Origin: a candidate division FCPU426 bacterium
GTDB taxonomy: Bacteria > Oederibacteriota > Muellerivitia > Muellerivitales > Muellerivitaceae
Reading direction: 5' to 3'
Assembly (NCBI GenBank): GCA_030041545.1
Contig: JASHNQ010000059.1
Span: forward strand, 16,222 to 80,221
Length of the DNA stretch: 64,000 bases
Shown in pieces: positions 8,764-37,685 of this stretch. Numbering within the stretch: position 1 is the first letter of the stretch; each line of letters begins with the position of its first letter. The notes below the pieces were generated by a model. It saw only the letters and a program-made list of their open reading frames with translations, ran no database searches and was not told the DNA's origin. The translations under genes were made by a program, and so were the position numbers.

Positions 8764-8867
8764 AACCCAACTCGAACCACAGACCAAGAACCTATAATAA
8801 AATCTCTTTAATCTTAAATCTTAAAACCAAAGGGACACCGCCAAAATTTTTCCTGTAGGATGGGCTT

Positions 8868-9365: not shown

Positions 9366-9516
9366 AAAAGGGCTTTCACCAGCCTAAAATCTTAAAATCG
9401 GCCGGTTTTTAGGCGAAAAAAATCCAAAATTCTCATAGTTGAAACATTAAAACGTTTGAAGTGCTATACAATAATTACTATAGGTTAACCGTATTTCCAT
9501 TTTTAAAGGACCACCA

Positions 9517-10797
9517 TTGATTTATACCTCCGATTTCAGCGACCTGGATTTCAAGGCGATCTTGAACCGCGAACTGATAGAAGTCCATTTCCAACCCATT
9601 TTCTCCATCCGCGAAAAAAAAGTCGTCGGTTTTGAGGGTCTCTCCCGCGGCGTCCACCCCGAATCGGGAAATCTGATCCCGCCCTTAGCGCTCTTGAAGT
9701 CAGCAAAGGATTCAGGCCTGACCCTGGAACTGGACCAGCTTTTCCGCAAGAAGGTCCTGGAAACTTTCAAGCGCTGCTGTCCATCGCCCCAGGAACTCAT
9801 CCTCACGCTTAACTTCGAGACCTCCGTCATCGACCAGGAAATTGGCACGCTTAACCTGCTTCACCTTTGCCGCCAGCTGGGCATGGACCCCTCGGGCATC
9901 GTCATTGAAATCTTGGAATCTAAGGTCAAGAACACCGAAGCCTTAAGCCGCTTCGTGCACATTTACCGAGAACACGGTTTCCTGGTGGCGCTCGACGACG
10001 TTGGCAAGGGCCACTCCAACCTGGACCGCATCCCGGTCATCCAGCCCGACATCCTCAAAATCGACCGGTCCCTGGTCATGAACCTGGAATCGGACTATCA
10101 CCGCCAGGAGGTCTTCAAGGCCCTCGTGGGCCTTTCCCATAAGATCGGGGCCATGGTCTTAGCCGAGGGAGCGGAAACCGAGGAGGAGACCCTGGAGGCC
10201 ATGGAACTAGGCGCGGACCTCATCCAGGGGTATTACATCTCCAAACCCCAGGAGGCCACCGCGAAGTTCGTGGAGGTGGCCACCCATGTCCTGGATCCCC
10301 TGGCCGGCAAGTTCCGCAAGCGCATGGTGGACAAGTTCAACATCCGCAAGATGCAACATGAACGCTATAGCCTGGTGATGGAATCCCTGGTGGGGGATTT
10401 TTCGACTTTCTCCCTGGGGGAAATGGACGGAAGACTTCCAGGCGCCCTAGCCAGCCATTCCATCGCCGAAGCCCTTTATGTCCTGGATGAGAAGGGGCTC
10501 CAGGCCACCCTCATGGCCTGCAAAAAGGTCCAACGCATTCAAAAGGGTATTTTCCGCCTGCCGCCTAAAGGAACCGATTATTCCATGCGGGACTACTACT
10601 ACCACCTAGTGGAAGCCCATTTCGACCGGGAAACCTACACCAGCGAACCCTATATCTCCCCCGCCACCGGCCTTTTCTGCCTAACCATCGCCACCCGGTT
10701 CAAGGATCGTGACGACGTGCCCCTTATCCTTTGCGTGGATGTGGTGCCCAACTACCTCAAGCATATGGGCCGCATCATGACCCTTTTCGGCGGCTGA
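9517..10797 (+). CDS. EAL-domain c-di-GMP phosphodiesterase with an uncharacterised C-terminal domain
   Basis: TTG start. EAL motifs present: FEGLSR (EALxR position), DDVGKGHSNLDRI (DDFGTGYSS), ILKIDRSLV, AEGAETEEE, IQGYYISKP. About 175 aa after the EAL domain has no recognisable motif. Confidence 0.8.
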   Translation: MIYTSDFSDLDFKAILNRELIEVHFQPIFSIREKKVVGFEGLSRGVHPESGNLIPPLALLKSAKDSGLTLELDQLFRKKVLETFKRCCPSPQELILTLNFETSVIDQEIGTLNLLHLCRQLGMDPSGIVIEILESKVKNTEALSRFVHIYREHGFLVALDDVGKGHSNLDRIPVIQPDILKIDRSLVMNLESDYHRQEVFKALVGLSHKIGAMVLAEGAETEEETLEAMELGADLIQGYYISKPQEATAKFVEVATHVLDPLAGKFRKRMVDKFNIRKMQHERYSLVMESLVGDFSTFSLGEMDGRLPGALASHSIAEALYVLDEKGLQATLMACKKVQRIQKGIFRLPPKGTDYSMRDYYYHLVEAHFDRETYTSEPYISPATGLFCLTIATRFKDRDDVPLILCVDVVPNYLKHMGRIMTLFGG

Positions 10798-23174: not shown

Positions 23175-24200
23175 CTAGCGGTTCAAAGCCCGGTGGCGTT
23201 TCAGGAGCAAGGAACTCCAGGAATAATCCTCCAATCTCAGGTGATGAAGCTTGCCACCATCCCCAAAAGCCTTTTGGTGGGCGGATCGGGCCTTGGTGGA
23301 GGCCAGCTTCACGTAGTTTTCACTGACCATGATGCTGGAATGGCCCATCAAGTCCCGTATTTCATAAACGCTGGCGCCCGATTCGGCTAATTGGGTGCCG
23401 AAGGAATGCCGTAACACGTGCACGGTCAGTTCGTCCGGGTTTTCCAAGTGGGCCCACTTTGCCGCTTTCTTGACCCATGACTCCAGGTAATCCGGATGAA
23501 TGGGTTTTTGGGCGCTTCTTGGACTTGCGAAAAGATAGGGGCTCTGGGGTTTGTCCTGGTTTGCCAAATAACGCTTTAGCAACTCCTTCAAGGTCTCGGT
23601 CATAGGCACGGTGCGTTCCTTGTCGCCCTTACCAATGACTGTGACCAAGCCCTGGGCAAGGTCCAAATCACGGGTCCGCAAATGGGCGATCTCCGAAACC
23701 CTCAAGCCGCAATGGTAGCCTAAAAGGACGGTCAGACTAATTTTTTGACCCTCTAAGTTATCTGTTTGGAGGCTCTTGACTAATGCTTCGCGATCCCGGG
23801 GCGACAAAGGATGGGGGTTTCTCTGGGGGCTTCGGATGGAAAGGTTGTGGAAAACGGCGGTAGGATCGTTGGTGATGTGCTGGGTCGAAGCCAAGAAACG
23901 GTAAAAGGACCGGGTGGAGGCCAGAATGCGTTTCATGGACCGAGTGGAATAAGCGTTCCGGAACTTACCGCTCGGGGTTTTGCCAGCTTTGGTCAAAGAC
24001 CCAGCAAAGCGGACCATATGTTCTGGTTTTGCGCCAGCAGGGCCCAAGATGTCGTTCTGGTCCAGGAATAGCTTTAAAACGCGAAGGTCTTGATGATAAT
24101 TTTCCTTGGTGTGGGAGGATTTGCACAACGCCAGAAAACCATCATAGGGCTTGATTTCCAAAAGATTGAGCGGGTTGGGAGCTTGTGATTGGGGGTTCAT
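23175..24200 (-). CDS. tyrosine-type site-specific recombinase/integrase (XerC/D-like)
   Basis: R...GKGDKERTVP box I and LRHSFGTQLAESGASVYEIRDLMGHSSIMVSENY box II with the catalytic Tyr. The start could instead be 24323. Confidence 0.75.
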   Translation of the reverse strand: MNPQSQAPNPLNLLEIKPYDGFLALCKSSHTKENYHQDLRVLKLFLDQNDILGPAGAKPEHMVRFAGSLTKAGKTPSGKFRNAYSTRSMKRILASTRSFYRFLASTQHITNDPTAVFHNLSIRSPQRNPHPLSPRDREALVKSLQTDNLEGQKISLTVLLGYHCGLRVSEIAHLRTRDLDLAQGLVTVIGKGDKERTVPMTETLKELLKRYLANQDKPQSPYLFASPRSAQKPIHPDYLESWVKKAAKWAHLENPDELTVHVLRHSFGTQLAESGASVYEIRDLMGHSSIMVSENYVKLASTKARSAHQKAFGDGGKLHHLRLEDYSWSSLLLKRHRALNR

Positions 24201-24424
24201 AAACTCGGTATAACTGTAATTATACCAAGTTTTGGAACCGAATGGGAAGAGAATTATTTTTGTATTTTTTTCCGCAGACAGTGCAGACCAGGTTTTCTTC
24301 GTAATAACCTCTTCTAGGTCCACCCATAGGGTCCTCTCAACTGGCGATTTTGCATTTGAAGGCGGTTTTTTTCGACGATCATACGGCGAGGTAAGCCGTC
24401 ATATTCCGTCGAACGGCGCTTTTT

Positions 24425-25201
24425 TTACAGCGTCTTGGACAGGAAACGGTCCAGGATTTTTTGGAAGGAACCTGGATCTTCCAGAGGAAGCAAGTGCCCG
24501 GCGCCCTCCAAAATCTCCAGTTGGCTGAGCCGGATGACCTTGGCCATGGCCTCGGACTCGGAAACCGGGATCAAAGCATCCTCCCGGCCAGCCAAGATGA
24601 GCGTGGGCACCCTTAAGGCTGGCAAAAGGCTTGTCTGGTCGCGCCGGACCGCCATGGCCCGTTGGGCCAAGGCCACGGCTTCCGGGGACGTGCCCTGGAT
24701 CCATTGGGCCACTTGGTCCTTAACTTCGGGTTTTTCCGATAAAGTTGTCTTACCAAGCAGGCCCGGGATCATGGCGGCCACCATGAACTCCGTGCCTTCT
24801 TTCAGGACCTTTTCCGCCATCTTCAAGCGGTTTTCCCGCGCTTCAGGTTTGTCCGCCCCAGCCCTGGTCGAGATGAACAAGGCCTTGTTCACTTGGGATG
24901 GAAATTGCCTCAAGAACTCCATAGCCCAATAACCGCCCATGGAGATGCCGCCTAAGGAAATCGGCCCTTTGATTTTCAATTCGTGTAGGTGGTTTTCCAG
25001 GCTTTGGGCCGCCATTTCCAACGTCAATCCCTCTGGGGCCAAGGGAGCCCCTCCGAAGCCCGGAAAATCCGTCAAAATCAGCGAATATCCCTTGGGAGAT
25101 TTCAGGTTTTTCCAAATTTGGTGGGACAACGGGAAGGCGTGCAAAAGCACAAGGGGTTTTCCGGTTCCAATGACTTTGGAGTGAAGGGACGGCACAGCCA
25201 T
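24425..25201 (-). CDS. alpha/beta-fold hydrolase
   Basis: LVLLHAFP and GGISMGG nucleophile-elbow motifs. Confidence 0.75.
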   Translation of the reverse strand: MAVPSLHSKVIGTGKPLVLLHAFPLSHQIWKNLKSPKGYSLILTDFPGFGGAPLAPEGLTLEMAAQSLENHLHELKIKGPISLGGISMGGYWAMEFLRQFPSQVNKALFISTRAGADKPEARENRLKMAEKVLKEGTEFMVAAMIPGLLGKTTLSEKPEVKDQVAQWIQGTSPEAVALAQRAMAVRRDQTSLLPALRVPTLILAGREDALIPVSESEAMAKVIRLSQLEILEGAGHLLPLEDPGSFQKILDRFLSKTL

Positions 25202-25271
25202 GAAAACCCTTTTAAATCTTTGATTTAACCATGAATTCTTGAAGCTTTACTTTAAGACTTGAGATTATAGA

Positions 25272-26228
25272 TTAATAGGTGAAAACGGGTGTCTTGGGCC
25301 GTCGTCCCGACAAAACCAGGTCGATATTCTCGGCGGCTAAGAGGGCCATTGCAGTGCGGGTTTCCACTGTGGCGCTCCCAATATGCGGCAACAGCGTGCA
25401 GTTTTCCAGGCGCAACAGTCTTTTTTCAATCTGGGGTTCGTTTTCGTAAACATCAAGCCCGGCTGAGTAAAGCCACCTCTTTTCAAGCGCCTCCGCCAGA
25501 TCTTTTTCCCGGTGGATGGCTCCCCGCCCGGTATTGATGAAGATGGCGGTTTTCTTCATCTTCCGGAATTCCTTCTTGGCGAACCGTTGGCGGGTGTCCG
25601 GGGTGAGGGGGCTGTTCACGCTCAGGAAGTCTGAATTTCGTAAAAGGGTATTGAAGGACACATAACGCGCGTTTAATCCCCTTTCAACTTTTGGGTTTTC
25701 CCGGTGTCGCTGGTGGTAGAGGATTTTCATGTTCCATCCCCTTCCCCGCCGGGCTACGGCCTTCCCGATGCGCCCAAAGCCGTAGATCCCAAGAGTTTTT
25801 CCCGCCAAGTCCACTCCCAAAAGCATTAGGGGATGGGCCCCCTGGAATTTTCCAGCCCGGACCAAACGGTCCCCCTCTGGTATCCTCCGGGCGCAGGACA
25901 AAAGGAGCGCCCAGGCGGTATCGGCCGTTGCTTCGGTCAGGACTTCGGGGGTATGGGTCACCCATATGCGCCGGGCTCGGGCTGCCTCCAGGTCGATGTT
26001 GTTGAATCCCACGGCGCAATTGGCCACGCATTTCAAACGCGGGGCCGCAAGAACCATTTTGGTGACGGGATCGGCCAGTGTGGTTAAAAGCGCGTCAAAG
26101 AGCCTGGATCTGGAAATAAGCTGGGTTTCGGTCAACTGGTGCTTATTCCAAACAACCTGGTATTTTTGGCGGAGGAGAAGAAAGGCGGAATCCGGCAATT
26201 GGTTGGTGATCAAAACCCGTTTTTTCAC
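25272..26228 (-). CDS. D-isomer-specific 2-hydroxyacid dehydrogenase (glyoxylate/hydroxypyruvate reductase-like)
   Basis: GIYGFGRIGKAVARR NAD-binding motif and the catalytic His/Glu region. Confidence 0.85.
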   Translation of the reverse strand: MKKRVLITNQLPDSAFLLLRQKYQVVWNKHQLTETQLISRSRLFDALLTTLADPVTKMVLAAPRLKCVANCAVGFNNIDLEAARARRIWVTHTPEVLTEATADTAWALLLSCARRIPEGDRLVRAGKFQGAHPLMLLGVDLAGKTLGIYGFGRIGKAVARRGRGWNMKILYHQRHRENPKVERGLNARYVSFNTLLRNSDFLSVNSPLTPDTRQRFAKKEFRKMKKTAIFINTGRGAIHREKDLAEALEKRWLYSAGLDVYENEPQIEKRLLRLENCTLLPHIGSATVETRTAMALLAAENIDLVLSGRRPKTPVFTY

Positions 26229-26309
26229 GGTGAAACCTTTCGGGGACCAGGAAAGACGGCAGGAGGGCTGATATTACGCGGTTTTACCAGGTGGTTCAAG
26301 CCAAGCGGG

Positions 26310-27056
26310 TTAGGTGCCGGGGGTCACGGTCCCAGTCGGAGTGATGGTTTCCTTGGGATTGACGATATTGGTGATCTTCTGCCACAGGCTCGGCGGGGGC
26401 GTGGGGGTGACGGTGGGGCTAGGGGTCGGCGTAGGTGAAATGCGGCCGTCCAGCAGCAGGACCGTGTCGTGCCCGCCGGTCTTAAAAACGGGCGTTCCCA
26501 CCGGGTCCACGTGCGAGGACACCTGGGATACCTCGATCACGTCCACCGCGATGGCGTATTCGGACTCCACTAGGTTGTAAAACCGGCCATAAATGACGAC
26601 TTTCAGTCCTTTGGAAAGTTGGTCCAACTGGTGCAGGTCCCCGGTGGCCGTGTGGAAAAGCAGGATGGGAAAGGAATAATGATAGCCGTCCTTTTCCTCA
26701 AGGGTCATTTGGACGAGGTTATAGTCCTCGACGTTGTCCCCGATGCGGGAAAGCCTCGATTTGTATTCGTAGGGTGAAAGCCACTTGTAGGAATCGAAGG
26801 TTCCCTCGATTTGGATGGGGCGGCCGTTATTGATTTCGGTGTAATGGGTCCTCAGGAAATCCAGGTCCATGATTCCATAGTCCGAGATGTAATCCCGGGA
26901 CTCGGATTGGGCAACCAGGGTACCGGCCAGCAGAAGGAACGCAAAGGCGGTTAAAAGGGCGGCTTTTTTCACGAACCGGCTCCCACCAATGGACAGGGTT
27001 TGAAAGGCTTCCGCGCTAAGCTTTGCAAGGATGATCTTAATGAGAGGCTCGGACAA
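26310..27056 (-). CDS. hypothetical secreted protein with a Pro/Thr-rich C-terminus
   Basis: Signal-like segment AALLTAFAFLLLAGTLVAQ. PTPTPSPTVTPTPPP tail. Confidence 0.4.
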   Translation of the reverse strand: MSEPLIKIILAKLSAEAFQTLSIGGSRFVKKAALLTAFAFLLLAGTLVAQSESRDYISDYGIMDLDFLRTHYTEINNGRPIQIEGTFDSYKWLSPYEYKSRLSRIGDNVEDYNLVQMTLEEKDGYHYSFPILLFHTATGDLHQLDQLSKGLKVVIYGRFYNLVESEYAIAVDVIEVSQVSSHVDPVGTPVFKTGGHDTVLLLDGRISPTPTPSPTVTPTPPPSLWQKITNIVNPKETITPTGTVTPGT

Positions 27057-27160
27057 AGACGGGCATCATTATAGCCCCCCTCTCCCTCCCCCACCAACTG
27101 GTTTTTAAGGCCGGGCATTCCCCCACCCTAGGGCCCGCGTGCCGCGGGAGCGCGTCGATT

Positions 27161-30100
27161 TTAAAACATCGGGGCCAGGTTGAAGTCGAATTCCGGGGGA
27201 CTCGATTGGGTCAGGGCCCAAGCCACATCGAAACGGAACATCACAAGGGCCCTCTGGTCGAAAAAGGTATAGAAGCGGATTCCCGTTCCAAGGCTGGCCA
27301 GCACCGGCGAATAAGGCAGGTCCTGGACCTCGTTGGAAACAATCCCCGCGTCCATGAATCCCGCCAGCTCCACGTCCTTGATGAGCAGGAAGGAAAGGGG
27401 CTGGGGAATGAAGTTCATGTTGGTGGCGATGGGATAGCGCAACTCGGAATTCACGAGCCCCAGGTCGCTGCCGAAAAAAGTGGCGCCGTTGTAGCCCCGG
27501 ATGGTGGTGAAGTAGCCTCCCAGCAAGGTGTTGGCCACGTCGTCGTCGCCGATGAAGAAGGTCTGGGGATTGGGTCCTTGGGAGGTCATGGCGATGACGC
27601 GGTTGGCCCAGACCAGGTGGTTGAGAAAGCTGAAGTCGGCGAAAACGTCGGTCTCGAACAACAGGTTGGCGAAGGAGGCGTTGTAATCGAAGACCGGGAG
27701 CGCGTGCAGCAGGGTGAAATTCAGGCCGTACCCGCTGCTGGGCCAGAACTGGGTGCCCTGGCGCCGGTCCTGAACGAAGGAGAGCCGGTAGAAATTGGCC
27801 ACCGTCCACTGTTGGTTGAGGTTATAGTTGGAGATGCCCTCGGAAAACTGCAGGTAAAGCGGGCTTCCCAGGAACCGCTCGGTGCCTACCCCATATTCCA
27901 CGCGGGTGTAGGTGTCGATGGGATAGCTGAAATTCAGCGTGAAGCCGTTGGCGTTGAAATGGTAGGCCGTCGTGAGGAGCCCCGTTTGGGGGTTGTACAG
28001 GTTGTAGTAGTTCTGGTAGTAAAAGAAGTTCAAGTCCACTGTAGTGCGCCATTGGGAGAATTCATAACTGGCGTCCACCCCCGTGTCCACCCCCGGGACC
28101 GTGTCGCCCTCAATCCCCAGGCGGTGGTCCCCCAACTCGTCGCTCATTTCCACCAGCCCCCCGCCCACGAAGCCGAAGGCGCTGTCGTAGCCGGCCAGGA
28201 AAAGCAGCAGGTCGGGGGTGAGGCTGAACTGGTAGTCCTTGGCGGCTACCTTGAAGGACGGGCGGGCCTCCACGGTGGGGGAGGGGGGGCTTTCCCCCAA
28301 TTTGTTGACGGCGGTAACGTAGTAGAAATAGGCGCCTCCGATCCGCACGTCGTAATCAATGTACAAGCCGCGCCGGAGGCTGGGGGCTGTTCCCAGGTAG
28401 GTGAAGGTGGCCCCGGCCGCCGCCGCGCGGTAAACGCGGTAACTGTCCACCGAGTCCTCCGTGGCGCCGGTGGTGGGCCATTGGAGCTCCACGATGTTGG
28501 ACTCTTCGGCCACGGCCAGGCTGGCGACGGCGGCGGGGGCATGGGTCGGCGTTTTCTTCTCGACGACGATCTCGGGTTCCTCCCGTTCCGCCGGGTTGGG
28601 CGGCAGCTCCACCTCCTGGACGGTTTCCGTGACGGGATGGACCGCGATCACCTTGGAGGCGTCCTGGAAAGAATTGGAGATGTAGGAAAATTCCTGGGTC
28701 ATGGTCTCAAAAACGGAATTGGGCCATTCCTGCCCTTCCAAATTGGCCCCATCGAAGGCGTAGAGGGACTCCATGCCCTTCTGGTAGCAAACCGCGTAAA
28801 GTTTTTTCCCTTCCGGGTCGGGCAACGCGCTCACCACGTCGGCGAAAGTGTTGGTGAGCTGGGTCAGGTGGCCCCCGTCCAAATCCGTTTGGAAGACGTT
28901 GAAAATCCTCCGGCTCAAATCCGAGGTGAAGGTCAGGTGGCCGGAGCGCGCCGTAAGTGAGGTCAGGGTCCCTAAATTCCTTCCCACGGCCTGGGGTCCA
29001 CCCGTGGGAATCCCCTGGTCGTTGAGGGCGCTCCTAAGGATTTCCTGCCGCCCCGCCTCTTCGTTGATGAAGTAAAGTGATTTCCCGTCCGGGCCGTATT
29101 GGGCCCAGCTTTTGTAGTCCCGGTCGTGGGTGAGGCGTTCCACCTTTCCCGTGGCGACCTCGTAGCGGTACAGATCGGTGGTTTCGTAGTCGAAGCCGCT
29201 GAAGACGATGAATTTTTGGTCGGGCGACCAGCCCGGCGAGGCGATGACCGGCAGGCCTTGGAGCGGGCATTCCCGCAATTGGCGGTTGTCGATCCGGTAG
29301 AGGCAAAGACGGTATTCACCGTTCCGGTCGGCGGCGAAAGCCAGCGTCTTGCCGTCGGGCGACCATGCCACGCCCGACCCCTCGGTCTGGAAATGCCGGT
29401 TGAGCAGGACCGTTTTGTTCTTGTCCGCCAGACGGAGGAGGGACAGTTCCCTTCCCTTCAAGAGGGCCAGGGTTTTGCCGTCCGGGGAAAGGGCCCCTTT
29501 GAGGGCCGAGGTGGGGGTTCCCTTTTCCAGGGCATCGCCGTATTTTTCCGGCGCGGGAAGGCCGTTGATGCGGGACCAGGCCTGGGTACGCATGAAAAAA
29601 TGCCAGTTGTTGTAAAGCTGGTCCAGGGAAACCCCCAGCACGGCCTTCGTGGCCGTGTCCGGTGACTGGTTGGCCGCCATGTGCTTGAACAACTGCACGA
29701 CCTTTCCGTTCCCGTACACCTGGGTGACGTAATCCAAAACGCTCTGGGATTCCTTGTAAGCCGTGTACACCTGGGGAAAGTGATCGAAGGATTCCATCAG
29801 CGAAAGGGGCATGACCAGGTCGTTCAATACGGCGTCCCGGAGGACCATTTCTCCCTGGGCGTCCAGGTGCTGGGCGTTCCATTCCGCCATCCCCTCCATC
29901 ATCCAAGTGGGTACGAAGACGGGCCTTAGGAGGTTTACCGACCGCCACCCTTCGCCGTAGATGAGGTCGTATTGGAAGGCGTGGGTCAGCTCGTGGTGGA
30001 TGACCTTTTCGAACTCGTGGTAGGAGCCGTCCATGGGCACCACGATGCGGTTCTTGAACACTTCGGTGAACCCCCCCACGCCCTCGGAGAGGATCTCCGG

Positions 30101-30454
30101 GGTGATGTTGGTTTCCTCGAACTCCAGGGGGGTGGCGTAAACGAACAAGGGGATCCGGGTCTTGGGCACATAGTCGAAGGCCTGGCAGGTCCCCACGAAG
30201 GCCCTTTCGGCCATGTCGGCGGCGGCCTCGGCCAGCGCTTGGCAGTGGTCGTAATAATAAACGTCGAAGTGCTCCGTCTCGATGCATTTCCAATGGTGGT
30301 CGGTGTGGTAACGGACCTTGTTTTGACCGAAATCCAGGCCCCAGCAAGGGGAAAAAGGGATTACAAAGGCGAGGGTCAGGAAAAGGGCGGCTGCGGGGTT
30401 CAGGCGCCGGCTTTTCCCGGGCGGACCGTCAATTCGGGCGCTGGGGTCCCACAA
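27161..30454 (-). CDS. multidomain outer-membrane protein: HExxH peptidase-like domain + PD40/TolB-like propeller + FN3-like + C-terminal Omp85/BamA-type beta-barrel
   Basis: VIHHELTHAFQYD HExxH motif. SPDGKTLAL and WSPDGKTLAF repeats. YRVYRAAAAGATFTYLG FN3-like segment. C-terminal barrel with GFMDAGIV and LGTGIRFY motifs, ending ...LAPMF. Confidence 0.7.
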   Translation of the reverse strand: MWDPSARIDGPPGKSRRLNPAAALFLTLAFVIPFSPCWGLDFGQNKVRYHTDHHWKCIETEHFDVYYYDHCQALAEAAADMAERAFVGTCQAFDYVPKTRIPLFVYATPLEFEETNITPEILSEGVGGFTEVFKNRIVVPMDGSYHEFEKVIHHELTHAFQYDLIYGEGWRSVNLLRPVFVPTWMMEGMAEWNAQHLDAQGEMVLRDAVLNDLVMPLSLMESFDHFPQVYTAYKESQSVLDYVTQVYGNGKVVQLFKHMAANQSPDTATKAVLGVSLDQLYNNWHFFMRTQAWSRINGLPAPEKYGDALEKGTPTSALKGALSPDGKTLALLKGRELSLLRLADKNKTVLLNRHFQTEGSGVAWSPDGKTLAFAADRNGEYRLCLYRIDNRQLRECPLQGLPVIASPGWSPDQKFIVFSGFDYETTDLYRYEVATGKVERLTHDRDYKSWAQYGPDGKSLYFINEEAGRQEILRSALNDQGIPTGGPQAVGRNLGTLTSLTARSGHLTFTSDLSRRIFNVFQTDLDGGHLTQLTNTFADVVSALPDPEGKKLYAVCYQKGMESLYAFDGANLEGQEWPNSVFETMTQEFSYISNSFQDASKVIAVHPVTETVQEVELPPNPAEREEPEIVVEKKTPTHAPAAVASLAVAEESNIVELQWPTTGATEDSVDSYRVYRAAAAGATFTYLGTAPSLRRGLYIDYDVRIGGAYFYYVTAVNKLGESPPSPTVEARPSFKVAAKDYQFSLTPDLLLFLAGYDSAFGFVGGGLVEMSDELGDHRLGIEGDTVPGVDTGVDASYEFSQWRTTVDLNFFYYQNYYNLYNPQTGLLTTAYHFNANGFTLNFSYPIDTYTRVEYGVGTERFLGSPLYLQFSEGISNYNLNQQWTVANFYRLSFVQDRRQGTQFWPSSGYGLNFTLLHALPVFDYNASFANLLFETDVFADFSFLNHLVWANRVIAMTSQGPNPQTFFIGDDDVANTLLGGYFTTIRGYNGATFFGSDLGLVNSELRYPIATNMNFIPQPLSFLLIKDVELAGFMDAGIVSNEVQDLPYSPVLASLGTGIRFYTFFDQRALVMFRFDVAWALTQSSPPEFDFNLAPMF

Positions 30455-30525
30455 AGGGTTCTCTCCGAAAACGTAAAATGAAGCGGGGGGACTTCCGCAT
30501 CCATGGGTTTACCGGGTTCCGCCCG

Positions 30526-32460
30526 TCAGCGCAAGGCCGCCACCCAAATCCCATGTCCCAACGAAGGGTACCACAAACCTTCGCCGGCGATAAAGGCCAC
30601 CTTTACCCCGTCGGAAGCCATGGCCGGCGACCCCGTTGAAAATTGCGGCGGGAGCAGGTACTGGCAGGTTCCAAGGTTCGCGTCCAGAAGCCTGGACGTG
30701 GTGACGGTGCTGAAGAAACCAAAGTCCCAGCCGGGGTGAACTTCCTCGAAGAGGATTTGTTGAGCGTTCGGGTTCCACACCAGGTCCCGGACCCCGGCGT
30801 TAGTCTGGAAAATAGGGACCCGCTTGGTTCCGTCGGCCAGCACCAGCCAAAGGGTGCTTTTTTTGCCGTCCTGTTCGAGGTAAAGGTAGCGGAACCCGTC
30901 TGGCGCTGGAATGACTTCCCCCACCTTCCCTACGGCGGAGAACTTATTCCCCAGGTCCCTTTCCGCCTCGGACATCAGGGGTTCCTTGAATCCGGATTTC
31001 ACGTCCACGACGTAAAACAAGCCGTGGATCCCGTCGGCGTAAGCCACTTCCTGCTCCGGGTAAACCCCCGATGGATTGTAGGGTGGGTTCAAGGGCCTCA
31101 CCCAGGACGGGGTATGGATGGGGTTTTCGGAGGTCATGAGCACCTTCGACTTACCGGTGGCCAAGGTGAGCGCGTTCAGAAAGTACCTTTCGCCCGGATG
31201 AGTCACATAGAGGAACTGTCCGCGGGTTTTAGACCATGGCACGCCGTCCTCAATGGGTTCAATCTCCTGCCTCAGGAGCGTAGCCTTGCCCGTGGCAGTG
31301 TTCACCTTCCAAAGCCCCCGCCCGCCGTTTCGGGACAGGTCAGCCAGCACCAGGCTTCCGTTTTCAATGAACAGAGGCCGAAAAGCCTCCTCCCCGGCTT
31401 GGACTTTAAGAAGGGTCGTGGACACGGGCGACGAAGCGGCTGGATTCAGGAGGTATTGGCGGGAAAGCAGGGCGGTCAGGATCGCCAGGCTCCATTCCCC
31501 TTTTTCGTTTTGGGCAAAGGCGATTTCGTCTTTCAGGTGATCCGCCTCGGCGAAATAATCGAGGTTCTGGACCTCACCTGGAAGCTTCTCAGTGGCCAGT
31601 TTCAAATCCACCAGGTCGGCGGTGGGATAGCCGAAAGGAAGGGCATAATAGGTGATGTGGCCCAGCATGAAAACCGAAACGGCCAGCATAAGTTTGTGGG
31701 GCCAAAACCCTTTCTGCTCGACTCCCTTGATGCGGATGAGGACGGCCGCCAAAAGAGCGAAGATGGCCAAAAGCCCCACTAGCAGCGCAGGAAAAACCCA
31801 TTGGGGCACGGACCAAAGGAAAAAGGCGAAAAACGAGAGAAACAAGGTCACAATTGCCATCCGCAGCCGCGCAATGGCGGGAAGGCGGTTCACGGAGTGC
31901 GCGATGATGTACCACAAAGCGTAAAGGAAGCCCAGGAAAAGGATCCAAACCATCGCCATCAGGTTTTCAACCGGTGGAAATCCCCCCAGGCTCACGGGGA
32001 GGGCATAGAGGAAGCAAGCTATTTCAAACAAGAAGACCTGGAATCCCACCAGTGGGATTTTCCAGGCGTGTGGGAAACGCCGGTTCTTGCGGTAGTCGGC
32101 GATCAGCCCGCTCACGGCCATACTACGGGCCCAACCTAGGAAAAATAAGCCCACCCCGACGGGGAAATAAGGCGGGTGCGGAAAAATCATCTCCAGGGGG
32201 GGTTTTAAGGCTCCAGGGAGAAGTTGGGGGTACTTGCGGATCAGGATTCCAATCAGAACCAGCCCAAGGCCCAAAAGCAGGAAAAAGGTTGAGGTAAAAA
32301 GCCGGGCAAATCTCGCCAGGAAACGTCTGGCCGCACTACGGAAAGCGGACGCGGCAAGCGGTGCTGCGGGGGGTGCGGGTGGAGCCGCAGCCGGGGCCGG
32401 CGGTGGAGCCGCAGGTGCGTTGGACGGATTCGCTGTTTCGGCCACGATGCCCTCCATCAA
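30526..32460 (-). CDS. polytopic membrane protein with Ala/Pro-rich N-terminus and a C-terminal beta-propeller-like periplasmic domain
   Basis: APAAPPPAPAAAPPAPPAAP low-complexity start, about 8 TM helices, then about 330 aa of beta-rich repeats. Confidence 0.55.
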   Translation of the reverse strand: MMEGIVAETANPSNAPAAPPPAPAAAPPAPPAAPLAASAFRSAARRFLARFARLFTSTFFLLLGLGLVLIGILIRKYPQLLPGALKPPLEMIFPHPPYFPVGVGLFFLGWARSMAVSGLIADYRKNRRFPHAWKIPLVGFQVFLFEIACFLYALPVSLGGFPPVENLMAMVWILFLGFLYALWYIIAHSVNRLPAIARLRMAIVTLFLSFFAFFLWSVPQWVFPALLVGLLAIFALLAAVLIRIKGVEQKGFWPHKLMLAVSVFMLGHITYYALPFGYPTADLVDLKLATEKLPGEVQNLDYFAEADHLKDEIAFAQNEKGEWSLAILTALLSRQYLLNPAASSPVSTTLLKVQAGEEAFRPLFIENGSLVLADLSRNGGRGLWKVNTATGKATLLRQEIEPIEDGVPWSKTRGQFLYVTHPGERYFLNALTLATGKSKVLMTSENPIHTPSWVRPLNPPYNPSGVYPEQEVAYADGIHGLFYVVDVKSGFKEPLMSEAERDLGNKFSAVGKVGEVIPAPDGFRYLYLEQDGKKSTLWLVLADGTKRVPIFQTNAGVRDLVWNPNAQQILFEEVHPGWDFGFFSTVTTSRLLDANLGTCQYLLPPQFSTGSPAMASDGVKVAFIAGEGLWYPSLGHGIWVAALR

Positions 32461-32463
32461 AAA

Positions 32464-32546
32464 AGTTTTGAGTTGATGAGAATTTTCATCCGTGAAACGG
32501 ATGAAAATTTCCCAAACTCATAACTCAGCACTCTGAACTCAAAACT
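32464..32546. repeat. intergenic hairpin repeat element (family copy 1)
   Basis: AGTTTTGAGTT...central perfect palindrome AATTTTCATCCG-TGAAA-CGGATGAAAATT...ATAACTCAGCACTCTGAACTCAAAACT. Shares the ATAACTCA/CTGAACTCAAAACT core with copies 2 and 3. Confidence 0.5.
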
Positions 32547-32550
32547 GACG

Positions 32551-33540
32551 TCAAAAGGCCCTGTATTCCAACAAACAGCCGTTTTGGAACATCGATTTCA
32601 GGGTGGAAAAAGGCGTCATATTCTTCAGGAATTCCTCGACGGGAGAGGGCCGGTCCAAACGCACCGTCGGTTCCCCCTTGATTCCGGCCAAGTCGGCGGT
32701 CAATTGCACGGCGTCCTCATAGTCCCCCAGTTGGTCCACCAAGCCCAATTCATAGGCCTTTTGACCGGTTAAAACCCGACCATCCGCGTAGGGCAAAAGG
32801 TAGCTGCGTATCTCCAAATCCGTGACGGCCGAAGCCTTCTTGCCCAGGGTTTTGGAAAGTTTCTGCTGGAGCACCTTACGGCGGCCGTCAATCACGGCAT
32901 TCAAGAACTGGTTGAAAACCTCATTAATGGTGCCCTGGATATAGGCCTTTTCCTGGGGGGTCATGGGCCGGCTGATGGAACCGGTGTCCTTGAATTTGCC
33001 GCTTTTAACCACCTGATAATCCACTCCTATCTTCTTAAGGAGGCCGGCGGCTTCGGGAAGCTCGAAAATGACCCCGATGGAACCCGTCAAGGTGCCCGGG
33101 TTGGCCACGATTTTGTTGCAGGCGGAGGCGATGTAATAAGCGCCCGAGGCAGCCAGGCTGCCCATGCTGGCCACCACGATCTTCTTGTCTTCCCGGGCTT
33201 TCAAAATTTCAGAATAAACCTCCTGGGAAGGGGCCACCACCCCGCCCGGACTGTCGATGCGCAACAGCAGGGCCTTTTTGGACCCGGTACGGAACCGCTT
33301 GATGAGCCGCACCAAGTCGTCGCTTTCGTAGATCGGGCCTTGGATTTCCACCAGGCTGATCTCGTTGCCGTCGGAAATCAGGGATGTGGCGCCCGTGCCG
33401 GTCAAGGCGTGCTGGACCGCGAAAACCACCACGACCAGGCTCAAGAAAAGCAGGCCCACGAGGATGACCATGGCCCAAAGAAGGGCATGGTTTCGGGACG
33501 TGGCCGGTGAGGGGGTTGGGGATACGGTAGAAGTCGCCAT
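32551..33540 (-). CDS. sppA: signal peptide peptidase SppA (S49, 36K type)
   Basis: S49 motifs SPGGVVAPSQEVY and GSLAASGAYYIASAC (Ser nucleophile). Internal Met 33540 chosen as start. Confidence 0.8.
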   Translation of the reverse strand: MATSTVSPTPSPATSRNHALLWAMVILVGLLFLSLVVVVFAVQHALTGTGATSLISDGNEISLVEIQGPIYESDDLVRLIKRFRTGSKKALLLRIDSPGGVVAPSQEVYSEILKAREDKKIVVASMGSLAASGAYYIASACNKIVANPGTLTGSIGVIFELPEAAGLLKKIGVDYQVVKSGKFKDTGSISRPMTPQEKAYIQGTINEVFNQFLNAVIDGRRKVLQQKLSKTLGKKASAVTDLEIRSYLLPYADGRVLTGQKAYELGLVDQLGDYEDAVQLTADLAGIKGEPTVRLDRPSPVEEFLKNMTPFSTLKSMFQNGCLLEYRAF

Positions 33541-33644
33541 AAGGAGGCTATGGTAACAGACCCCTAAAACCGATGCAACACGCCAATCGGGATGATAGAG
33601 GCTCATCGCAGCTTTGAGTCGCCGCGCCGCTTGCCCCTGGGGCG

Positions 33645-35030
33645 CTACGGCCCACTGCGCATTAAAACCATCTTCCTTAAGAATCGGCCATCCTTGGACA
33701 AAACGGCGGAATAAAGTCCAGGCGGCGCTTCCAGGCCCAGGCCTTCCAGCCCATCCCATGAAGCCCAGGCTTCCTTTTCCGTCGTGATTTTTTTATCGAA
33801 AACCGTTTGTATCAACTGGCCGTGGTTGTCCCAAATGCAGAGTTGGTACTCCCCTACCCCGTCCCGGAAGCCCATATAAATGTTGATGGGAAAAACACTG
33901 AAGACCAACGTTGAGGGAGCCCCCGCGGAAATGGGAATATTTTGGGCTGGAGAAGGACCGCCCACCGACAGGAAACTTCCACCGGTCGGTGTCAAAGAGG
34001 GCAAGGGTAGGGTGGGAAAGGCCGTGGGAATGGGCTTGCCCTTCCCCACCGGGGTTTGGCCGGAAAGCGCCGGCAAGGCCGCTTCCGTGCAGGGGCATCC
34101 ACCCTCCCCCAGCCATTGGGCCACGGCGGGGAAAAAGGCCCGGGTCACCTCCTTGGCCTCCCGCACGTGCTGGGCCAGGGAGGCGGTGGAGCGGATGTTT
34201 CCGGGCGCCCAGGCCGAATCGTCCCAAATGGGGGGGGGGTTCTCCGCCCCGCCGTACATCCCCGGCTGCCAAAGGGTCCACATGGTGGCATCCCAAACCA
34301 TGAAAAACCTGCCTCGGCCGCACAAACCGCTCGTCACGGCCCCGCCCAATTGGTTGCCCGACCAGCCGGAAACCATGGACCGGTCCGCTTGGTCGCTGAC
34401 CCAATCCTCCGATGTGTCCACGAAGTTGGTTCCTGTTAAATAGTCCAGCGGGATTCCTCCCACCATATTTCCATAAAATCGGCGGGGGCCCAGGCCGTTC
34501 CGGACCTTGTAAAAACCCTCGCCGGTGGTGCTGCTGTTGCCCCGGGGCGATGGCGGACAGGGATCATATCCCGGCTTGACCGCGTGGATTTCTTGGAGGA
34601 AGGCATAGACCCCCTCATCCCGGTCCGCGTAGGGGAAATATTCCGCGGCCAGGAAAAGTTTGCCGCAATGGTTGAGGAAGGAAACGGCCTTGGACCGCCA
34701 GCGGCCGTCGAAGTAATCCGCGGCCTGGGGCTGGCCGCTGCCGCACTCCCTGGAATCCCGGTCCACGAACCGCATATCCCATACCTGGTCGTAGGGGGCG
34801 CCCCAATCGTCGCTGCGCGGGTCGCGGTTCTTCCCGTCCACGTCCACGGTGGTCACGCGGTGGCCGGCGTTCTGGAGGATGGTCACGCATTCCAAAAGCG
34901 CGCCATTGGTGCCGTCGCCGCTATTGTAGTAAAAAAGGATGTTGTAGGCATGGGCCGTTAAAGGCCGGATAAAAAGGGATGAGGTCAAAAAGGTAAAAAG
35001 GAAAAAAAGGAATCGTGGCGGGAATTTCAT
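33645..35030 (-). CDS. secreted protein with a C-terminal FlgD-Ig/T9SS-like sorting domain
   Basis: Signal peptide MKFPPRFLFFLFTFLTSSLF. C-terminal block PINIYMGFRDGVGEYQLCIWDNHGQLIQTV...GLYSAVLSKDGRFLRKMVLMR. Confidence 0.5.
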   Translation of the reverse strand: MKFPPRFLFFLFTFLTSSLFIRPLTAHAYNILFYYNSGDGTNGALLECVTILQNAGHRVTTVDVDGKNRDPRSDDWGAPYDQVWDMRFVDRDSRECGSGQPQAADYFDGRWRSKAVSFLNHCGKLFLAAEYFPYADRDEGVYAFLQEIHAVKPGYDPCPPSPRGNSSTTGEGFYKVRNGLGPRRFYGNMVGGIPLDYLTGTNFVDTSEDWVSDQADRSMVSGWSGNQLGGAVTSGLCGRGRFFMVWDATMWTLWQPGMYGGAENPPPIWDDSAWAPGNIRSTASLAQHVREAKEVTRAFFPAVAQWLGEGGCPCTEAALPALSGQTPVGKGKPIPTAFPTLPLPSLTPTGGSFLSVGGPSPAQNIPISAGAPSTLVFSVFPINIYMGFRDGVGEYQLCIWDNHGQLIQTVFDKKITTEKEAWASWDGLEGLGLEAPPGLYSAVLSKDGRFLRKMVLMRSGP

Positions 35031-35109
35031 GACCAAGTCCACAGTTGTCCATTTGCAGTTGAGGGGCGTTTTTGGCTGCCGACTGTGGACTGTTAGCTGG
35101 CGACTGCCT

Positions 35110-35991
35110 TTAGTGGTAGTAATCGCCCTTGTCCACGAATTGGGATTTGGAGGCATCCCACTGGTAAACCGTGGTCATGCGCCGGAAGGGCCCGGCGAAG
35201 TCGTTGTCCGTCAGCTGGTAGCGTTCCTGGGCCTGCGTCTTCAAATCCGGCGGGTAAAGGACGTCGGTGGTGTTGATGATCTCCAGGGTGCCGTCGTGGT
35301 TCAGGTCCCGGTAAAGGGTGTAGCCCTCCAGCCACACGTTCAGCTCGAGTTCTTCCTTCACGTATTTTTGCACGTCCACCAGTTCGGGACGGTTGTAAAG
35401 CTCGTCCGGAACGCCCTGGAGGGCGTCGGTGACCAGCCGGTAAAAGGTCCTATCACAGCGGCTTCCCCCGCCGTAAGTGCCCACCTCGAAGAAAACGGGC
35501 ATTTCCTTGCCCAGGCTGACCAGGCGGGCGCAGCCGGGGTAACCTTGCCCGTGGAAGAGGTGCCGCCATTCCAGCCCGATTTTGATGTAGATCTCCGAGC
35601 TGCAGTGCCGGATGTCCCATTCGTCGGCGTAATCGGCCGTCAGGAAGGATTGTCCTTCGGCCTTGGAGTACCCCAGGAAGACCAGGGGAACCTCCGCTCC
35701 GTTGGCAGTGAGGGCCGTCAAGGGAATGCCGAACCTTGGGGCCAGCCCCGGGAGCAGCCGCCGCATGGCCACCAGGCGCCGGTGCCGCGAGGCGATGAAG
35801 TACACGTGAGGCTTGACCCGGATACCCCGGATGGCGCTTTGGAGGGATGGGTCCAGTTTGGCGTTGTGCCGGTCCACCCAAACCTGCGACATTTCCAAAC
35901 GGTCCATGGTCTCGTTTTCCGAAATCGCCCGCAAACCTCCGGGGAAAAACGCGCAGGCCAAGAGGATCGATAGGATGAGGGTTCTTTTCAT
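35110..35991 (-). CDS. hypothetical secreted protein
   Basis: Signal peptide MKRTLILSILLACAFFPGGLRA. No motif. Confidence 0.45.
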   Translation of the reverse strand: MKRTLILSILLACAFFPGGLRAISENETMDRLEMSQVWVDRHNAKLDPSLQSAIRGIRVKPHVYFIASRHRRLVAMRRLLPGLAPRFGIPLTALTANGAEVPLVFLGYSKAEGQSFLTADYADEWDIRHCSSEIYIKIGLEWRHLFHGQGYPGCARLVSLGKEMPVFFEVGTYGGGSRCDRTFYRLVTDALQGVPDELYNRPELVDVQKYVKEELELNVWLEGYTLYRDLNHDGTLEIINTTDVLYPPDLKTQAQERYQLTDNDFAGPFRRMTTVYQWDASKSQFVDKGDYYH

Positions 35992-35999
35992 GGACTCCT

Positions 36000-36217
36000 C
36001 CCAAAATTGTTTGAGGGACAATTATAAATGTAAAATGAACAAATAACGAAAAATAGTGAAATGGTTTTTGATGATTTTTCAGTACTGAAAATCTACAAAA
36101 ATGCCAATAAAGAGAATGTCCCTTTTTCAAAAGAACTTCCGGACGTCGTCTTAAACAATGTTACAATATGACTGTACTTATTAATAACTACATACAATTT
36201 ATAACATAGGCAAAGAC
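36000..36217 (+). promoter_or_regulatory. AT-rich leader/promoter region upstream of abiEi (left edge of the island)
   Basis: Sharp GC drop relative to both flanks. Direct TACAAT-containing repeats GTTACAATATGA and ATACAATTTATAA upstream of ATG 36218. Confidence 0.35.
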
Positions 36218-36820
36218 ATGAAAACAGCACCTAAAATCTCTATCCCCAAAACCCTTTTCCAAAAGGGCGTCCTGCGTCCCCGCGACATCCTCCAACAAGG
36301 GATCAGCCGGATGCGCCTGAAAAGGCTGGTGGACCAAGGCGTCCTAGTGCGTGAGGCGCGGGGGGTATACCGCGTTCCCGGCCATGAACCTTCCGAAAAG
36401 GAAAGCCTCGTCCAGGCCTGCGAAAGAGTGCCGGGCGGCATTCTTTGCCTGCTGACGGCGCTCCAATTCCATGGCATGACAACCCAATTCCCCCATGAAA
36501 TCTGGATGGCGATTGACGTGTGGGCCCGCAAGCCCCATGCGGAACATCTTCCCATCCGTTTTGTCCGTGCTTCCGGCAAATCCCTCGCTTCCGAGGTGGA
36601 GGAACACACCGTCCAAGGCGGGCGCATCCGGGTTTATAGCGCGGCGAAAACAGTTGCCGATTGCTTCAAGTACCGGAACAAGATCGGCCTGGACGTGGCG
36701 CTGGAAGCCCTGAAAGCCTTCCAAACCGGCCACAAAGGAAAGATGGATGATCTTTGGAGGAGCGCCCGCGTTTGCCGCGTGTCAAATATCATCCGGCCTT
36801 ATTTGGAGGCCCTGGCTTGA
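36218..36820 (+). CDS. abiEi: AbiEi family antitoxin (type IV TA / abortive infection)
   Basis: N-terminal wHTH region (GISRMRLKRLVDQGVLVREARGVYRV) and C-terminal conserved domain typical of AbiEi_4. Confidence 0.8.
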   Translation: MKTAPKISIPKTLFQKGVLRPRDILQQGISRMRLKRLVDQGVLVREARGVYRVPGHEPSEKESLVQACERVPGGILCLLTALQFHGMTTQFPHEIWMAIDVWARKPHAEHLPIRFVRASGKSLASEVEEHTVQGGRIRVYSAAKTVADCFKYRNKIGLDVALEALKAFQTGHKGKMDDLWRSARVCRVSNIIRPYLEALA

Positions 36821-37685
36821 AGAAAAAAAAAAGATCAAAAACCTCCCAGCTTCTGTGCGTCAGCGGCTCTATAACATCTCCAAAACTCGCAAGGAGGAAT
36901 TCGAATATGTCCTCACACGGTACGCCCTGGAAAGGTTCCTTTACCGCCTGGGCCGGTCAGTCCACCAAAAGAGGTTCGTTTTGAAAGGGGCCATGCTTTT
37001 CCAAGCCTGGTCACCCGAGATCCACCGTATGACCAGGGATTTGGACCTCCTGGATTCCAACAACCATGAAGCCCAAAAGGTCGTCCATGCTATCCGGGAA
37101 GTGTTGAATTCAAAAGTCCCAGATGACGGATTGGTTTTCAACGGTAAGTCGATTAAGTGGGGAGCCATCCGGCAGGGGCAAGCCTATCATGGGGTCCGCC
37201 TTCACTTTAAGGCCAAATTGACCCCGGCGGTCATCCCCCTCCAAGTAGATGTGGGTTTCGGCGACGCGATTGTGCCAAAGCCCAAGCGCATCCGTTACCC
37301 GACCCTTTTGGGTTTCCCATCCCCACATGTCCTGGCTTATGCCAAAGAAACCGTGGTCGCGGAAAAGCTCCATGCCATCGTGCTACTGGGCATGACGAAC
37401 AGCCGCTTGAAGGATTACTTCGACCTGTCGGTGCTCCTGAAAGGCGAAACCCTCGACGCCGACATGCTGGCCCAAGCGATTAAGGCAACGTTCAAGCGCC
37501 GCAGCATGCCCGTTCCCGCCGAACTGCCGATCGGTCTCACGGACGAATTCTCGCACGATCCATCGCAACAGGCGCTATGGCGTGCGTTCGTCAAGAGGAA
37601 CGGACTCGACCTCGAACCTTTGGCCGCCGTCGTGGAGCGACTGCGGACGGCCTTGGGACCGGCATTGAGCCGGGCCGGTCTATGA
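36747..37685 (+). CDS. abiEii: nucleotidyltransferase AbiEii/AbiGii toxin family protein
   Basis: NLPASVRQRLYN...YALERFLYRL N-terminal signature. DLD(L)LD NTase-like motif. First ATG overlaps abiEi by 74 nt; the true start may be a non-ATG codon nearer 36820. Confidence 0.8.
   Translation: MIFGGAPAFAACQISSGLIWRPWLEEKKKIKNLPASVRQRLYNISKTRKEEFEYVLTRYALERFLYRLGRSVHQKRFVLKGAMLFQAWSPEIHRMTRDLDLLDSNNHEAQKVVHAIREVLNSKVPDDGLVFNGKSIKWGAIRQGQAYHGVRLHFKAKLTPAVIPLQVDVGFGDAIVPKPKRIRYPTLLGFPSPHVLAYAKETVVAEKLHAIVLLGMTNSRLKDYFDLSVLLKGETLDADMLAQAIKATFKRRSMPVPAELPIGLTDEFSHDPSQQALWRAFVKRNGLDLEPLAAVVERLRTALGPALSRAGL

Follow-up and report, generated by a model that had tools for sequence, protein, structure and literature searches.

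A predicted zinc peptidase and a TolB-like propeller joined to an Omp85 barrel in a candidate division FCPU426 bacterium

INTRODUCTION

What does an outer-membrane barrel of the Omp85 superfamily do when the domains in front of it are a peptidase and a propeller instead of POTRA repeats? This question is raised by one gene at positions 27161-30454 (minus strand) of a 64,000-nucleotide stretch of DNA from a candidate division FCPU426 bacterium (contig JASHNQ010000059.1, positions 16,222 to 80,221), which is referred to below as the window. Omp85 proteins are central to outer-membrane biogenesis. The members characterised so far act in the assembly or translocation of proteins, with the recent exception of PlpD, a periplasmic lipase (PMC11116518). 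An original prediction, made from the letters of the window, described the gene product as an Omp85-type barrel that carries a zinc-metallopeptidase-like motif, PD40/TolB repeats and an FN3-like segment at its N-terminal side, and suggested that it serves either in two-partner secretion or in envelope quality control.

Here, we describe this protein as a member of the 'WD40-like' Omp85 subfamily, an architecture that is already known; the contribution of the window is a member from FCPU426 and a variant with an FN3-like domain. Its predicted zinc site is complete and its barrel is of the BamA/TamA type. On balance we favour the reading that the protein is anchored in the outer membrane and works autonomously as a zinc peptidase that faces the periplasm and is gated by its propeller; the alternatives are weighed against this reading after the evidence has been laid out domain by domain.

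THE GENE AND ITS PRODUCT

The gene is an uninterrupted open reading frame (ORF) of 1,097 codons that encodes 1,097 amino acids, with a TTG start at 30454-30452 and a stop codon at 27163-27161. A Shine-Dalgarno-like GGAGAG (30461-30466), read from the sequence, lies 6 nt upstream of the start, and an orthologue of 93% identity in a metagenome-assembled genome of candidate division FCPU426 has the identical N-terminal start, LWDPSA. All features given below within or next to the gene lie on the minus strand unless stated otherwise. Residues are numbered with the TTG codon as 1; the alignments and structure models omit the start codon, so that their numbers are one lower.

Between the target and the same orthologue, 251 codons differ synonymously only and 79 change the amino acid. 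Synonymous changes far exceed non-synonymous ones in every domain, and the peptidase domain (58 synonymous versus 12 changing) and the barrel (74 versus 11) are the most constrained. Because of this excess, the ORF is a real gene under purifying selection in all of its domains. The FCPU426 genomes hold homologues with 53-93% identity. Two long ORFs that overlap the gene, at 27206-28960 on the plus strand and at 29316-30347 on the minus strand, are shadow frames.

At the N-terminus, we infer a signal peptide of the Sec type, cleaved by signal peptidase I, from residue 1 to about residue 40 (30335-30454): KSRR is followed by a hydrophobic helix and by SPCWG, and the region as read has no canonical lipobox. 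The structure model places a helix at about residues 20-34, at a low predicted local distance difference test (pLDDT) score. Over its full length, the AlphaFold model has a pLDDT of 83 and a predicted template modelling (pTM) score of 0.84, and it comprises six propeller blades, seven FN3-like strands and sixteen barrel strands. Each of the motifs quoted in the original prediction (HELTH, SPDGKTLAL, WSPDGKTLAF, GFMDAGIV, LGTGIRFY and the terminal APMF) is present in the translation.

A COMPLETE PREDICTED ZINC SITE IN A GLUZINCIN DOMAIN

The N-terminal domain, residues 42-301 (29552-30331), is assigned to the gluzincin metallopeptidases (clan MA) by its match to the Pfam family Peptidase_MA_2 (E 2.5e-16, 60.5 bits, cutoff 32.4) and by its fold. 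It contains HELTH at residues 154-158 (29981-29995), the putative zinc-binding and catalytic motif with H154, E155 and H158, and then WMMEGMAEW (29879-29905), in which E187, 28 residues past H158, is the putative third zinc ligand. In an alignment of 42 sequences that extends down to 23% identity, H154, E155 and H158 are invariant, as are the W, E, G, A and E of W184-x-x-E187-G-x-A-E191. Among full-length homologues, HExxH occurs in 117 of 117 and WxxEGx[AS] in 115 of 117. The peptidase is also the best-conserved domain of the protein, with 37% identity to distant homologues versus 22-23% for the propeller and the barrel.

A search of the PDB by sequence with the peptidase domain found no relative, and for this reason the folds were compared instead. 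The comparison returned the thermolysin-like catalytic fold of gluzincins, with M30 (lugdulysin), M9 (collagenase) and M1 peptidases as neighbours; identity to any solved peptidase is just 10-17%. Since the ligand residues are invariant, the motifs are near-universal among homologues and the fold is that of a gluzincin, the HExxH, which the original prediction had described as zinc-metallopeptidase-like, is not fortuitous, and the predicted zinc site (HExxH followed by the downstream Glu) is complete as judged from sequence. The protein thus resembles M30 lugdulysin, M9 collagenase, M1 aminopeptidase N and the tricorn-interacting factor F3 in its HExxH, its downstream Glu and its thermolysin-like fold, and differs from them in that its peptidase is fused to a propeller and a barrel.

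An assignment as an aminopeptidase is not claimed. The alignment of the family with E. coli PepN (hhalign) is not significant (E 0.05, probability 1%) and starts after the GAMEN motif. Within it, the HExxH, the Glu ligand (LKEGLTVF in PepN) and an invariant Tyr233 stand opposite the zinc ligands and the catalytic-region Tyr of PepN, a low-scoring arrangement that is merely consistent with a gluzincin site. As a separate observation, a strand that precedes HExxH by 23 residues bears an invariant GGxTE at residues 127-131 (30062-30076), surrounded by other invariant positions (N116, K134, R136 and P140). It recalls the GxMEN exopeptidase motif of M1 peptidases, of which it is a possible but uncertain counterpart.

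AN OMP85 BARREL WITHOUT POTRA DOMAINS

The C-terminus is a bona fide Omp85 barrel of 16 strands, residues 745-1097 (27164-28222), that ends in the aromatic residue F1097. When a profile built from 42 homologues is aligned with E. coli BamA, the match covers the whole barrel (residues 426-809) at E 3.4e-9 and a probability of 96%, and the motifs fall in register. IRGY (residues 985-988; 27491-27502), which is the (V/I)RG(F/Y) motif and lies in loop L6 between strands 11 and 12, stands opposite VRGF of BamA; FMDAG (residues 1033-1037; 27344-27358), the (F/G)xDxG motif on strand 13, stands opposite FWDMG; and the C-terminal FDFNLAPMF pairs with FQFNIGKTW. Across the 42-sequence alignment, the R of IRGY and the F and D of FMDAG are invariant, and the G of each motif is conserved in at least 90%. 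The structure model matches BamA and TamA in Foldseek at about 2e-10, with template modelling (TM) scores of 0.54-0.58 on barrel-only chains, and its DSSP string contains 16 long barrel strands. The NCBIfam model Omp85_fam (NF047779) matches at E 2.2e-13 (50.5 bits, below its cutoff of 200), and PF01103 is significant in 31 of the 42 aligned homologues, with a best E of 6e-18. Because the BamA profile alignment, the in-register motifs, the PF01103 matches of the homologues and Foldseek agree, the Omp85 barrel is settled, even though PF01103 fails on the target alone.

The protein is not a standard BamA or TamA. Its score against the BamA equivalog TIGR03303 is 19.1 bits (E 3.4e-4) versus a cutoff of 297, and POTRA repeats are lacking: none of the 42 homologues has a match to a POTRA family, no profile alignment to BamA, that of the distant clade included, reaches upstream of the barrel, and profile alignment to BamA detected no POTRA in the segment of about 80 residues that separates the domains of distant homologues. 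The domain that precedes the barrel is all-beta. In short, the protein shares with BamA and TamA the 16-strand barrel, the (V/I)RG(F/Y) of L6, the FxDxG on strand 13 and the aromatic C-terminus, whereas POTRA domains are missing and its N-terminal enzyme and propeller modules are unrelated to BamA. On all of these points the original prediction holds: a putative third ligand, a peptidase fold and an Omp85 score for the C-terminus, whose absence it had named as evidence against itself, were all found.

A SIX-BLADED PROPELLER, A FLEXIBLE LINKER AND AN FN3-LIKE SPACER

Between the peptidase and the barrel, residues 305-569 (28748-29542) form a six-bladed PD40/TolB-like beta-propeller, as had been predicted from its repeats. 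The Pfam PD40 match is above its cutoff (E 1.5e-13; in a second Pfam run E 6e-16, over 3 stretches), and the model contains 24 strands in 6 groups of 4, mostly at pLDDT >90. TolB is the best match both by sequence, with PDB chains of TolB at E 1e-14 to 1e-11, and by structure, with Foldseek at 3e-11. The TolB equivalog TIGR02800 scores 66.7 bits versus a cutoff of 343, and the propeller part alone (profile positions 197-356) is matched. Thus, the likeness to TolB lies in the six-bladed PD40 propeller; the N-terminal alpha/beta domain of TolB is absent, and the propeller is part of a membrane protein, whereas TolB is soluble and periplasmic.

The propeller is followed by an acidic, proline-rich and flexible linker, residues 570-645 (28520-28747), which has pLDDT <50 at model residues 608-630. 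It is the least conserved segment of the protein, and its length differs among clades. Next comes an FN3-like beta-sandwich, residues 646-732 (28259-28519), at the position that the POTRA domains occupy in BamA. The model shows 7 beta-strands and no helix here, in agreement with the FN3-like segment that had been proposed, while the Pfam fn3 match is sub-threshold (E 5.7e-4, 20.5 bits versus a cutoff of 25); fn3 is significant in 10 of the 42 homologues. The FN3-like domain can be aligned within the FCPU426 and Coatesbacteria clade only, where linker and FN3-like domain together make a segment of 163 residues between propeller and barrel; in most distant homologues, this segment has only about 80 residues. 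The linker and FN3-like domain are a lineage variant of a spacer and not a new principle.

A KNOWN SUBFAMILY WITH A WIDE DISTRIBUTION

The original prediction presented the fusion as unusual, and here it has to be corrected. Heinz and Lithgow defined ten Omp85/TpsB subfamilies in 2014, including one named 'WD40-like' or 'WD40-Omp85' (PMC4104836). Their Table S2 lists architectures with PF07676 and PF01103, and their Table S3, based on Phyre2, gives a BamA/TamA barrel match and a TolB match for the members examined; most of these also have a 'best aminopeptidase hit' (F3, APN, ERAP1 and collagenase templates at 98.7-99.4% confidence). More recently, Hanson et al. (2024) described the WD40-like subfamily as conserved but not well characterised (PMC11116518), and the words 'divergent WD40 and peptidase domains' were used for it in a 2024 paper on Leptospira (PMC11358297). 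Our literature searches turned up no functional study of this peptidase-propeller subfamily.

The target is a member of the subfamily, assigned by its architecture and by shared template families. It has the N-terminal aminopeptidase-like region, the PD40 repeats that best match TolB and the BamA/TamA-type barrel, and it has no POTRA; the template families that Phyre2 returned for the subfamily were recovered independently for the target and its family. Homologues of the target also occur in taxa related to those of the members that Heinz and Lithgow listed (for example H1XQ58, D0MEQ5 and B0VIY2), such as Salinivenus, Calditrichia, Gemmatimonadota and Latescibacterota. It differs from the listed members in coming from FCPU426, and an extra long linker and the FN3-like domain set it apart from most distant members, which lack them. 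What is new here is the FCPU426 member and the FN3-containing variant, while the architecture itself was already known.

The family is large. A word-indexed database search matched 2,271 proteins at E ≤1e-5, which also speaks for a real gene. The 120 highest-ranking of these, from Coatesbacteria, Eisenbacteria, Latescibacterota, Gemmatimonadota, Calditrichia and Chitinispirillaceae, are mostly 925-1,150 residues long and combine Peptidase_MA_2 with PD40 (and in part PF01103); 'BamA/TamA family outer membrane protein', 'Tol biopolymer transport system component' and 'PD40 domain-containing protein' are among their source names. An exhaustive search of 1.84 billion representatives clustered at 50% identity returned 768 proteins at E ≤1e-30, and among the best 150 of them, 128 have at least 900 residues. 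Species-representative genomes with the family belong to FCPU426, Elusimicrobia, Gemmatimonadota, Krumholzibacteriia, Salinivenus and others. The subfamily thus comprises about 770 clusters across Elusimicrobia, Gemmatimonadota, phyla of the FCB group and several candidate phyla, and its zinc site is strictly conserved. It is a worthwhile experimental target, to which the window adds a member and a variant but no new principle.

In one assembly the gene appears twice. On contig JAJAPZ010000001 of Candidatus Obscuribacterium magneticum, two copies lie about 128 kb apart with identical match statistics, which could reflect a recent duplication or an assembly repeat.

A PROPOSED FUNCTION AND WHAT SPEAKS AGAINST IT

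We propose that the barrel would sit in the outer membrane, with the N-terminal module tethered beneath it in the periplasm, as holds for all Omp85 proteins whose topology is known. The propeller would serve as a substrate-binding platform or a size filter for the peptidase, and at the outer membrane's inner face the peptidase would cleave peptides or unfolded polypeptides. The protein would thus be a self-contained enzyme of envelope proteostasis or processing, and its barrel would be either a mere anchor or also a presenter of stalled barrel substrates to the peptidase. We regard this reading, a periplasm-facing and autonomous zinc peptidase gated by its propeller, as somewhat more probable than not.

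The proposal rests on the domain composition, on the catalytic site that is kept throughout the family and on the lack of a neighbour shared across phyla, and further on two lines of analogy. Strand 1 of Omp85 barrels begins on the periplasmic side. POTRA domains have so far been seen in the periplasm only, and the N-terminal enzyme domain of PlpD, which had long been regarded as secreted, turned out to be periplasmic (PMC11116518). By these three points, the N-terminal module of the target would also face the periplasm. PlpD, a patatin-like Omp85 protein of what was formerly called 'type Vd', is similar in having a hydrolytic domain N-terminal to an Omp85 barrel; it differs in that it joins a patatin lipase to one POTRA domain and forms dimers, while in the target, which lacks POTRA, the parts before the barrel are a zinc peptidase, a propeller and an FN3-like domain. 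As regards the propeller, tricorn protease, prolyl oligopeptidase and DPP-IV use theirs to gate or bind substrate, and in tricorn the propellers channel substrates to the protease; by analogy, the propeller of the target would be a substrate binder or filter.

Several points weigh against this proposal. The isolated C-terminal 366 residues give no Pfam PF01103 hit even at E ≤10, and the NCBIfam barrel scores of the target are below the curated cutoffs. The nearest structural relatives of the modelled peptidase domain span endopeptidases (M30 and M9) and aminopeptidases (M1), so that the enzyme could be an endo- or an exopeptidase. The long flexible linker would also be compatible with an exported passenger. 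Finally, Heinz and Lithgow suggested that the propeller is a TolB- or BamB-like docking module, which would have nothing to do with substrate gating (PMC4104836).

If the protein is indeed an outer-membrane-anchored periplasmic protease, the Omp85 scaffold gains a degradative function, which might explain envelope proteostasis in these lineages. The envelope quality-control idea of the original prediction remains a plausible proposal, and it can be taken further. BepA is a zinc protease of the M48 family that is associated with BAM, the machinery for beta-barrel assembly, and acts on stalled outer-membrane proteins. A one-polypeptide quality-control machine at the outer membrane might take hold, through the barrel's lateral gate, of beta-barrel or lipoprotein substrates that have stalled or misfolded, and the propeller would pass these on to the zinc peptidase. 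We hold this extended version to be possible but doubtful. If it were true, BamA-like recognition and BepA- or DegP-like degradation would be combined in one protein, which would be the first Omp85 for degradation rather than for assembly or translocation, and an uncharacterised subfamily would have a function. It is important to note that BepA, DegP and tricorn are functional analogues only, with no homology claimed; they differ from the target in peptidase family and in accessory domains (TPR, PDZ), and tricorn also in compartment.

ALTERNATIVE READINGS AND THE GENOMIC NEIGHBOURHOOD

The alternative that survives best is a BAM-like assembly factor, in which the barrel would be the insertase or translocase for some outer-membrane proteins, the propeller a fused BamB- or TolB-like dock, and the peptidase domain mainly a device that binds or holds substrates. 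A reading of this kind, resembling a fusion of BamA and BamB, was put forward by Heinz and Lithgow (PMC4104836). It agrees with the retention of L6 RGY and FxDxG, which are needed for Omp85 function, and with what characterised Omp85 proteins do, namely to assemble or translocate proteins (PMC11116518). However, POTRA domains are missing, the blades are six of the TolB type and not eight of the BamB type, and a full zinc site in essentially every homologue, together with the peptidase being the most conserved domain, argues for catalysis over mere binding. We therefore consider an assembly factor unlikely.

Another possibility, compatible with the proposed periplasmic peptidase, is that the protein belongs to a dedicated module with its neighbours, which might for example pass membrane-derived peptides from the inner to the outer membrane. 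The neighbours concerned are three. Directly upstream is g644 (30526-32460), a protein of 644 amino acids whose N-terminal half (about residues 50-280) is a polytopic membrane region, whereas its C-terminal half resembles a propeller; no Pfam family was matched, the PD40/TolB signal is faint, and there is no similarity to the target. Two genes upstream is the signal peptide peptidase SppA of family S49 (32551-33759; Peptidase_S49 at E 2e-44, and TIGR00706 at E 4e-58, above cutoff). Immediately downstream is g248 (26310-27056), a small secreted protein of 248 amino acids with a signal peptide and a Pro/Thr-rich C-terminal tail and without a family match. The original prediction had placed SppA and the membrane-propeller gene downstream, but both are upstream, since the target is on the minus strand.

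These four genes share one orientation, with gaps of 71-104 nt, and nearly all of the 20 FCPU426-clade loci, among which target identity is 53-93%, retain the order SppA-g644-target-g248. The 644-residue protein stands directly upstream of the target in 19 of these 20 loci (it is displaced in the remaining one), at 29-81% identity. The syntenic block runs on, however, through genes for a 2-hydroxyacid dehydrogenase, an alpha/beta hydrolase, a Xer-like recombinase and an aminotransferase, and so looks like general gene order at the level of the phylum. No gene of the block, g644 included, lies beside the homologues in 57 loci of other phyla; SppA and g248 accompany the target within FCPU426 only. 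Scans of 25000-36500 for promoters and terminators stayed at chance level and were uninformative. The 644-residue protein is a companion confined to this lineage and at most a putative partner of the target, and a module of the four genes is, in our estimate, rather unlikely. Of the 'proteolytic envelope module' that had been proposed, the co-orientation with SppA and the membrane-propeller gene stands, while the module itself is not supported: the synteny is confined to FCPU426 and spans unrelated housekeeping genes, so that it is at most a lineage-specific association.

Elsewhere the homologues have other neighbours: in Elusimicrobia they adjoin cmk-plsC-rpsA and the gene of a TPR protein, in Gemmatimonadota those for RsfS, SMC and a SPOR-domain protein, in Coatesbacteria those for HflX and sigma-70, and in further phyla unrelated genes. 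No neighbour is common to the homologues across phyla, and each lineage shows housekeeping synteny of its own only. Because no neighbour is shared by different phyla, the family appears self-contained, and the protein can probably do without an operon partner dedicated to it, as the proposed autonomous peptidase would.

Two side observations concern these neighbourhoods. In Elusimicrobia, a TPR protein of 275 amino acids with a weak TPR_Slam-like match lies about 50 nt upstream of the homologue, after cmk-plsC-rpsA (8830-9654 in locus L021, and in 11 other loci); it could be a lineage-specific partner. In the window, a tyrosine recombinase of the 'phage integrase' family at 23175-24323 (minus strand) was considered as a marker of a mobile element and rejected: its synteny extends to 17 of the 20 FCPU426-clade loci, several of the others ending before this position, and it looks like a chromosomal Xer-type recombinase.

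A third alternative is a surface-displayed protease, whose barrel would export its own peptidase-propeller passenger in the manner of type V secretion for extracellular degradation or nutrition. The order of the parts, an N-terminal passenger followed by a C-terminal barrel with a disordered linker of 76 residues between them, would suit this reading, as would the presence of secreted proteases (M30 lugdulysin and M9 collagenases) among the closest folds. It was also the former model for PlpD, but that model has been overturned by the periplasmic location of the enzyme domain (PMC11116518). Moreover, a six-bladed propeller and a peptidase of 260 residues would have to cross, unfolded, through a 16-strand barrel occupied by L6; the segment between propeller and barrel is just about 80 residues long in most distant homologues; and no precedent is known among Omp85 proteins. 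We judge surface display to be quite improbable. The last alternative, a transporter of the two-partner-secretion type for a separate exoprotein, which the original prediction had also raised, shares with the target a common Omp85/TpsB superfamily but is effectively refuted and has next to no likelihood, as the POTRA pair is absent, no TpsB/ShlB-type HMM matches, the barrel aligns with BamA and TamA, and no gene for a TpsA-like large exoprotein adjoins in any lineage examined.

OTHER FEATURES OF THE WINDOW

Four further genes of the window deserve a brief description. A TPR-rich protein of 989 amino acids (1941-4910, plus strand) has a YfiO/BamD-like match at residues 585-661 (E 1.8e-13) and may be a relative of a BAM-associated lipoprotein in the same genome. 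At 37577-42778 (plus strand), an ORF of 1,733 amino acids joins two helicases, one of the DEAD/Helicase_C type (residues 329-652) and one of the UvrD type (residues 1123-1587), in a double-helicase architecture that is unusual. The remaining two are signalling genes: an FHA-GAF-adenylate/guanylate cyclase protein is encoded at 50824-52392 (minus strand), and adjoining its gene, at 52509-54317 (minus strand), is that of a Ser/Thr kinase fused to a six-bladed NHL propeller.

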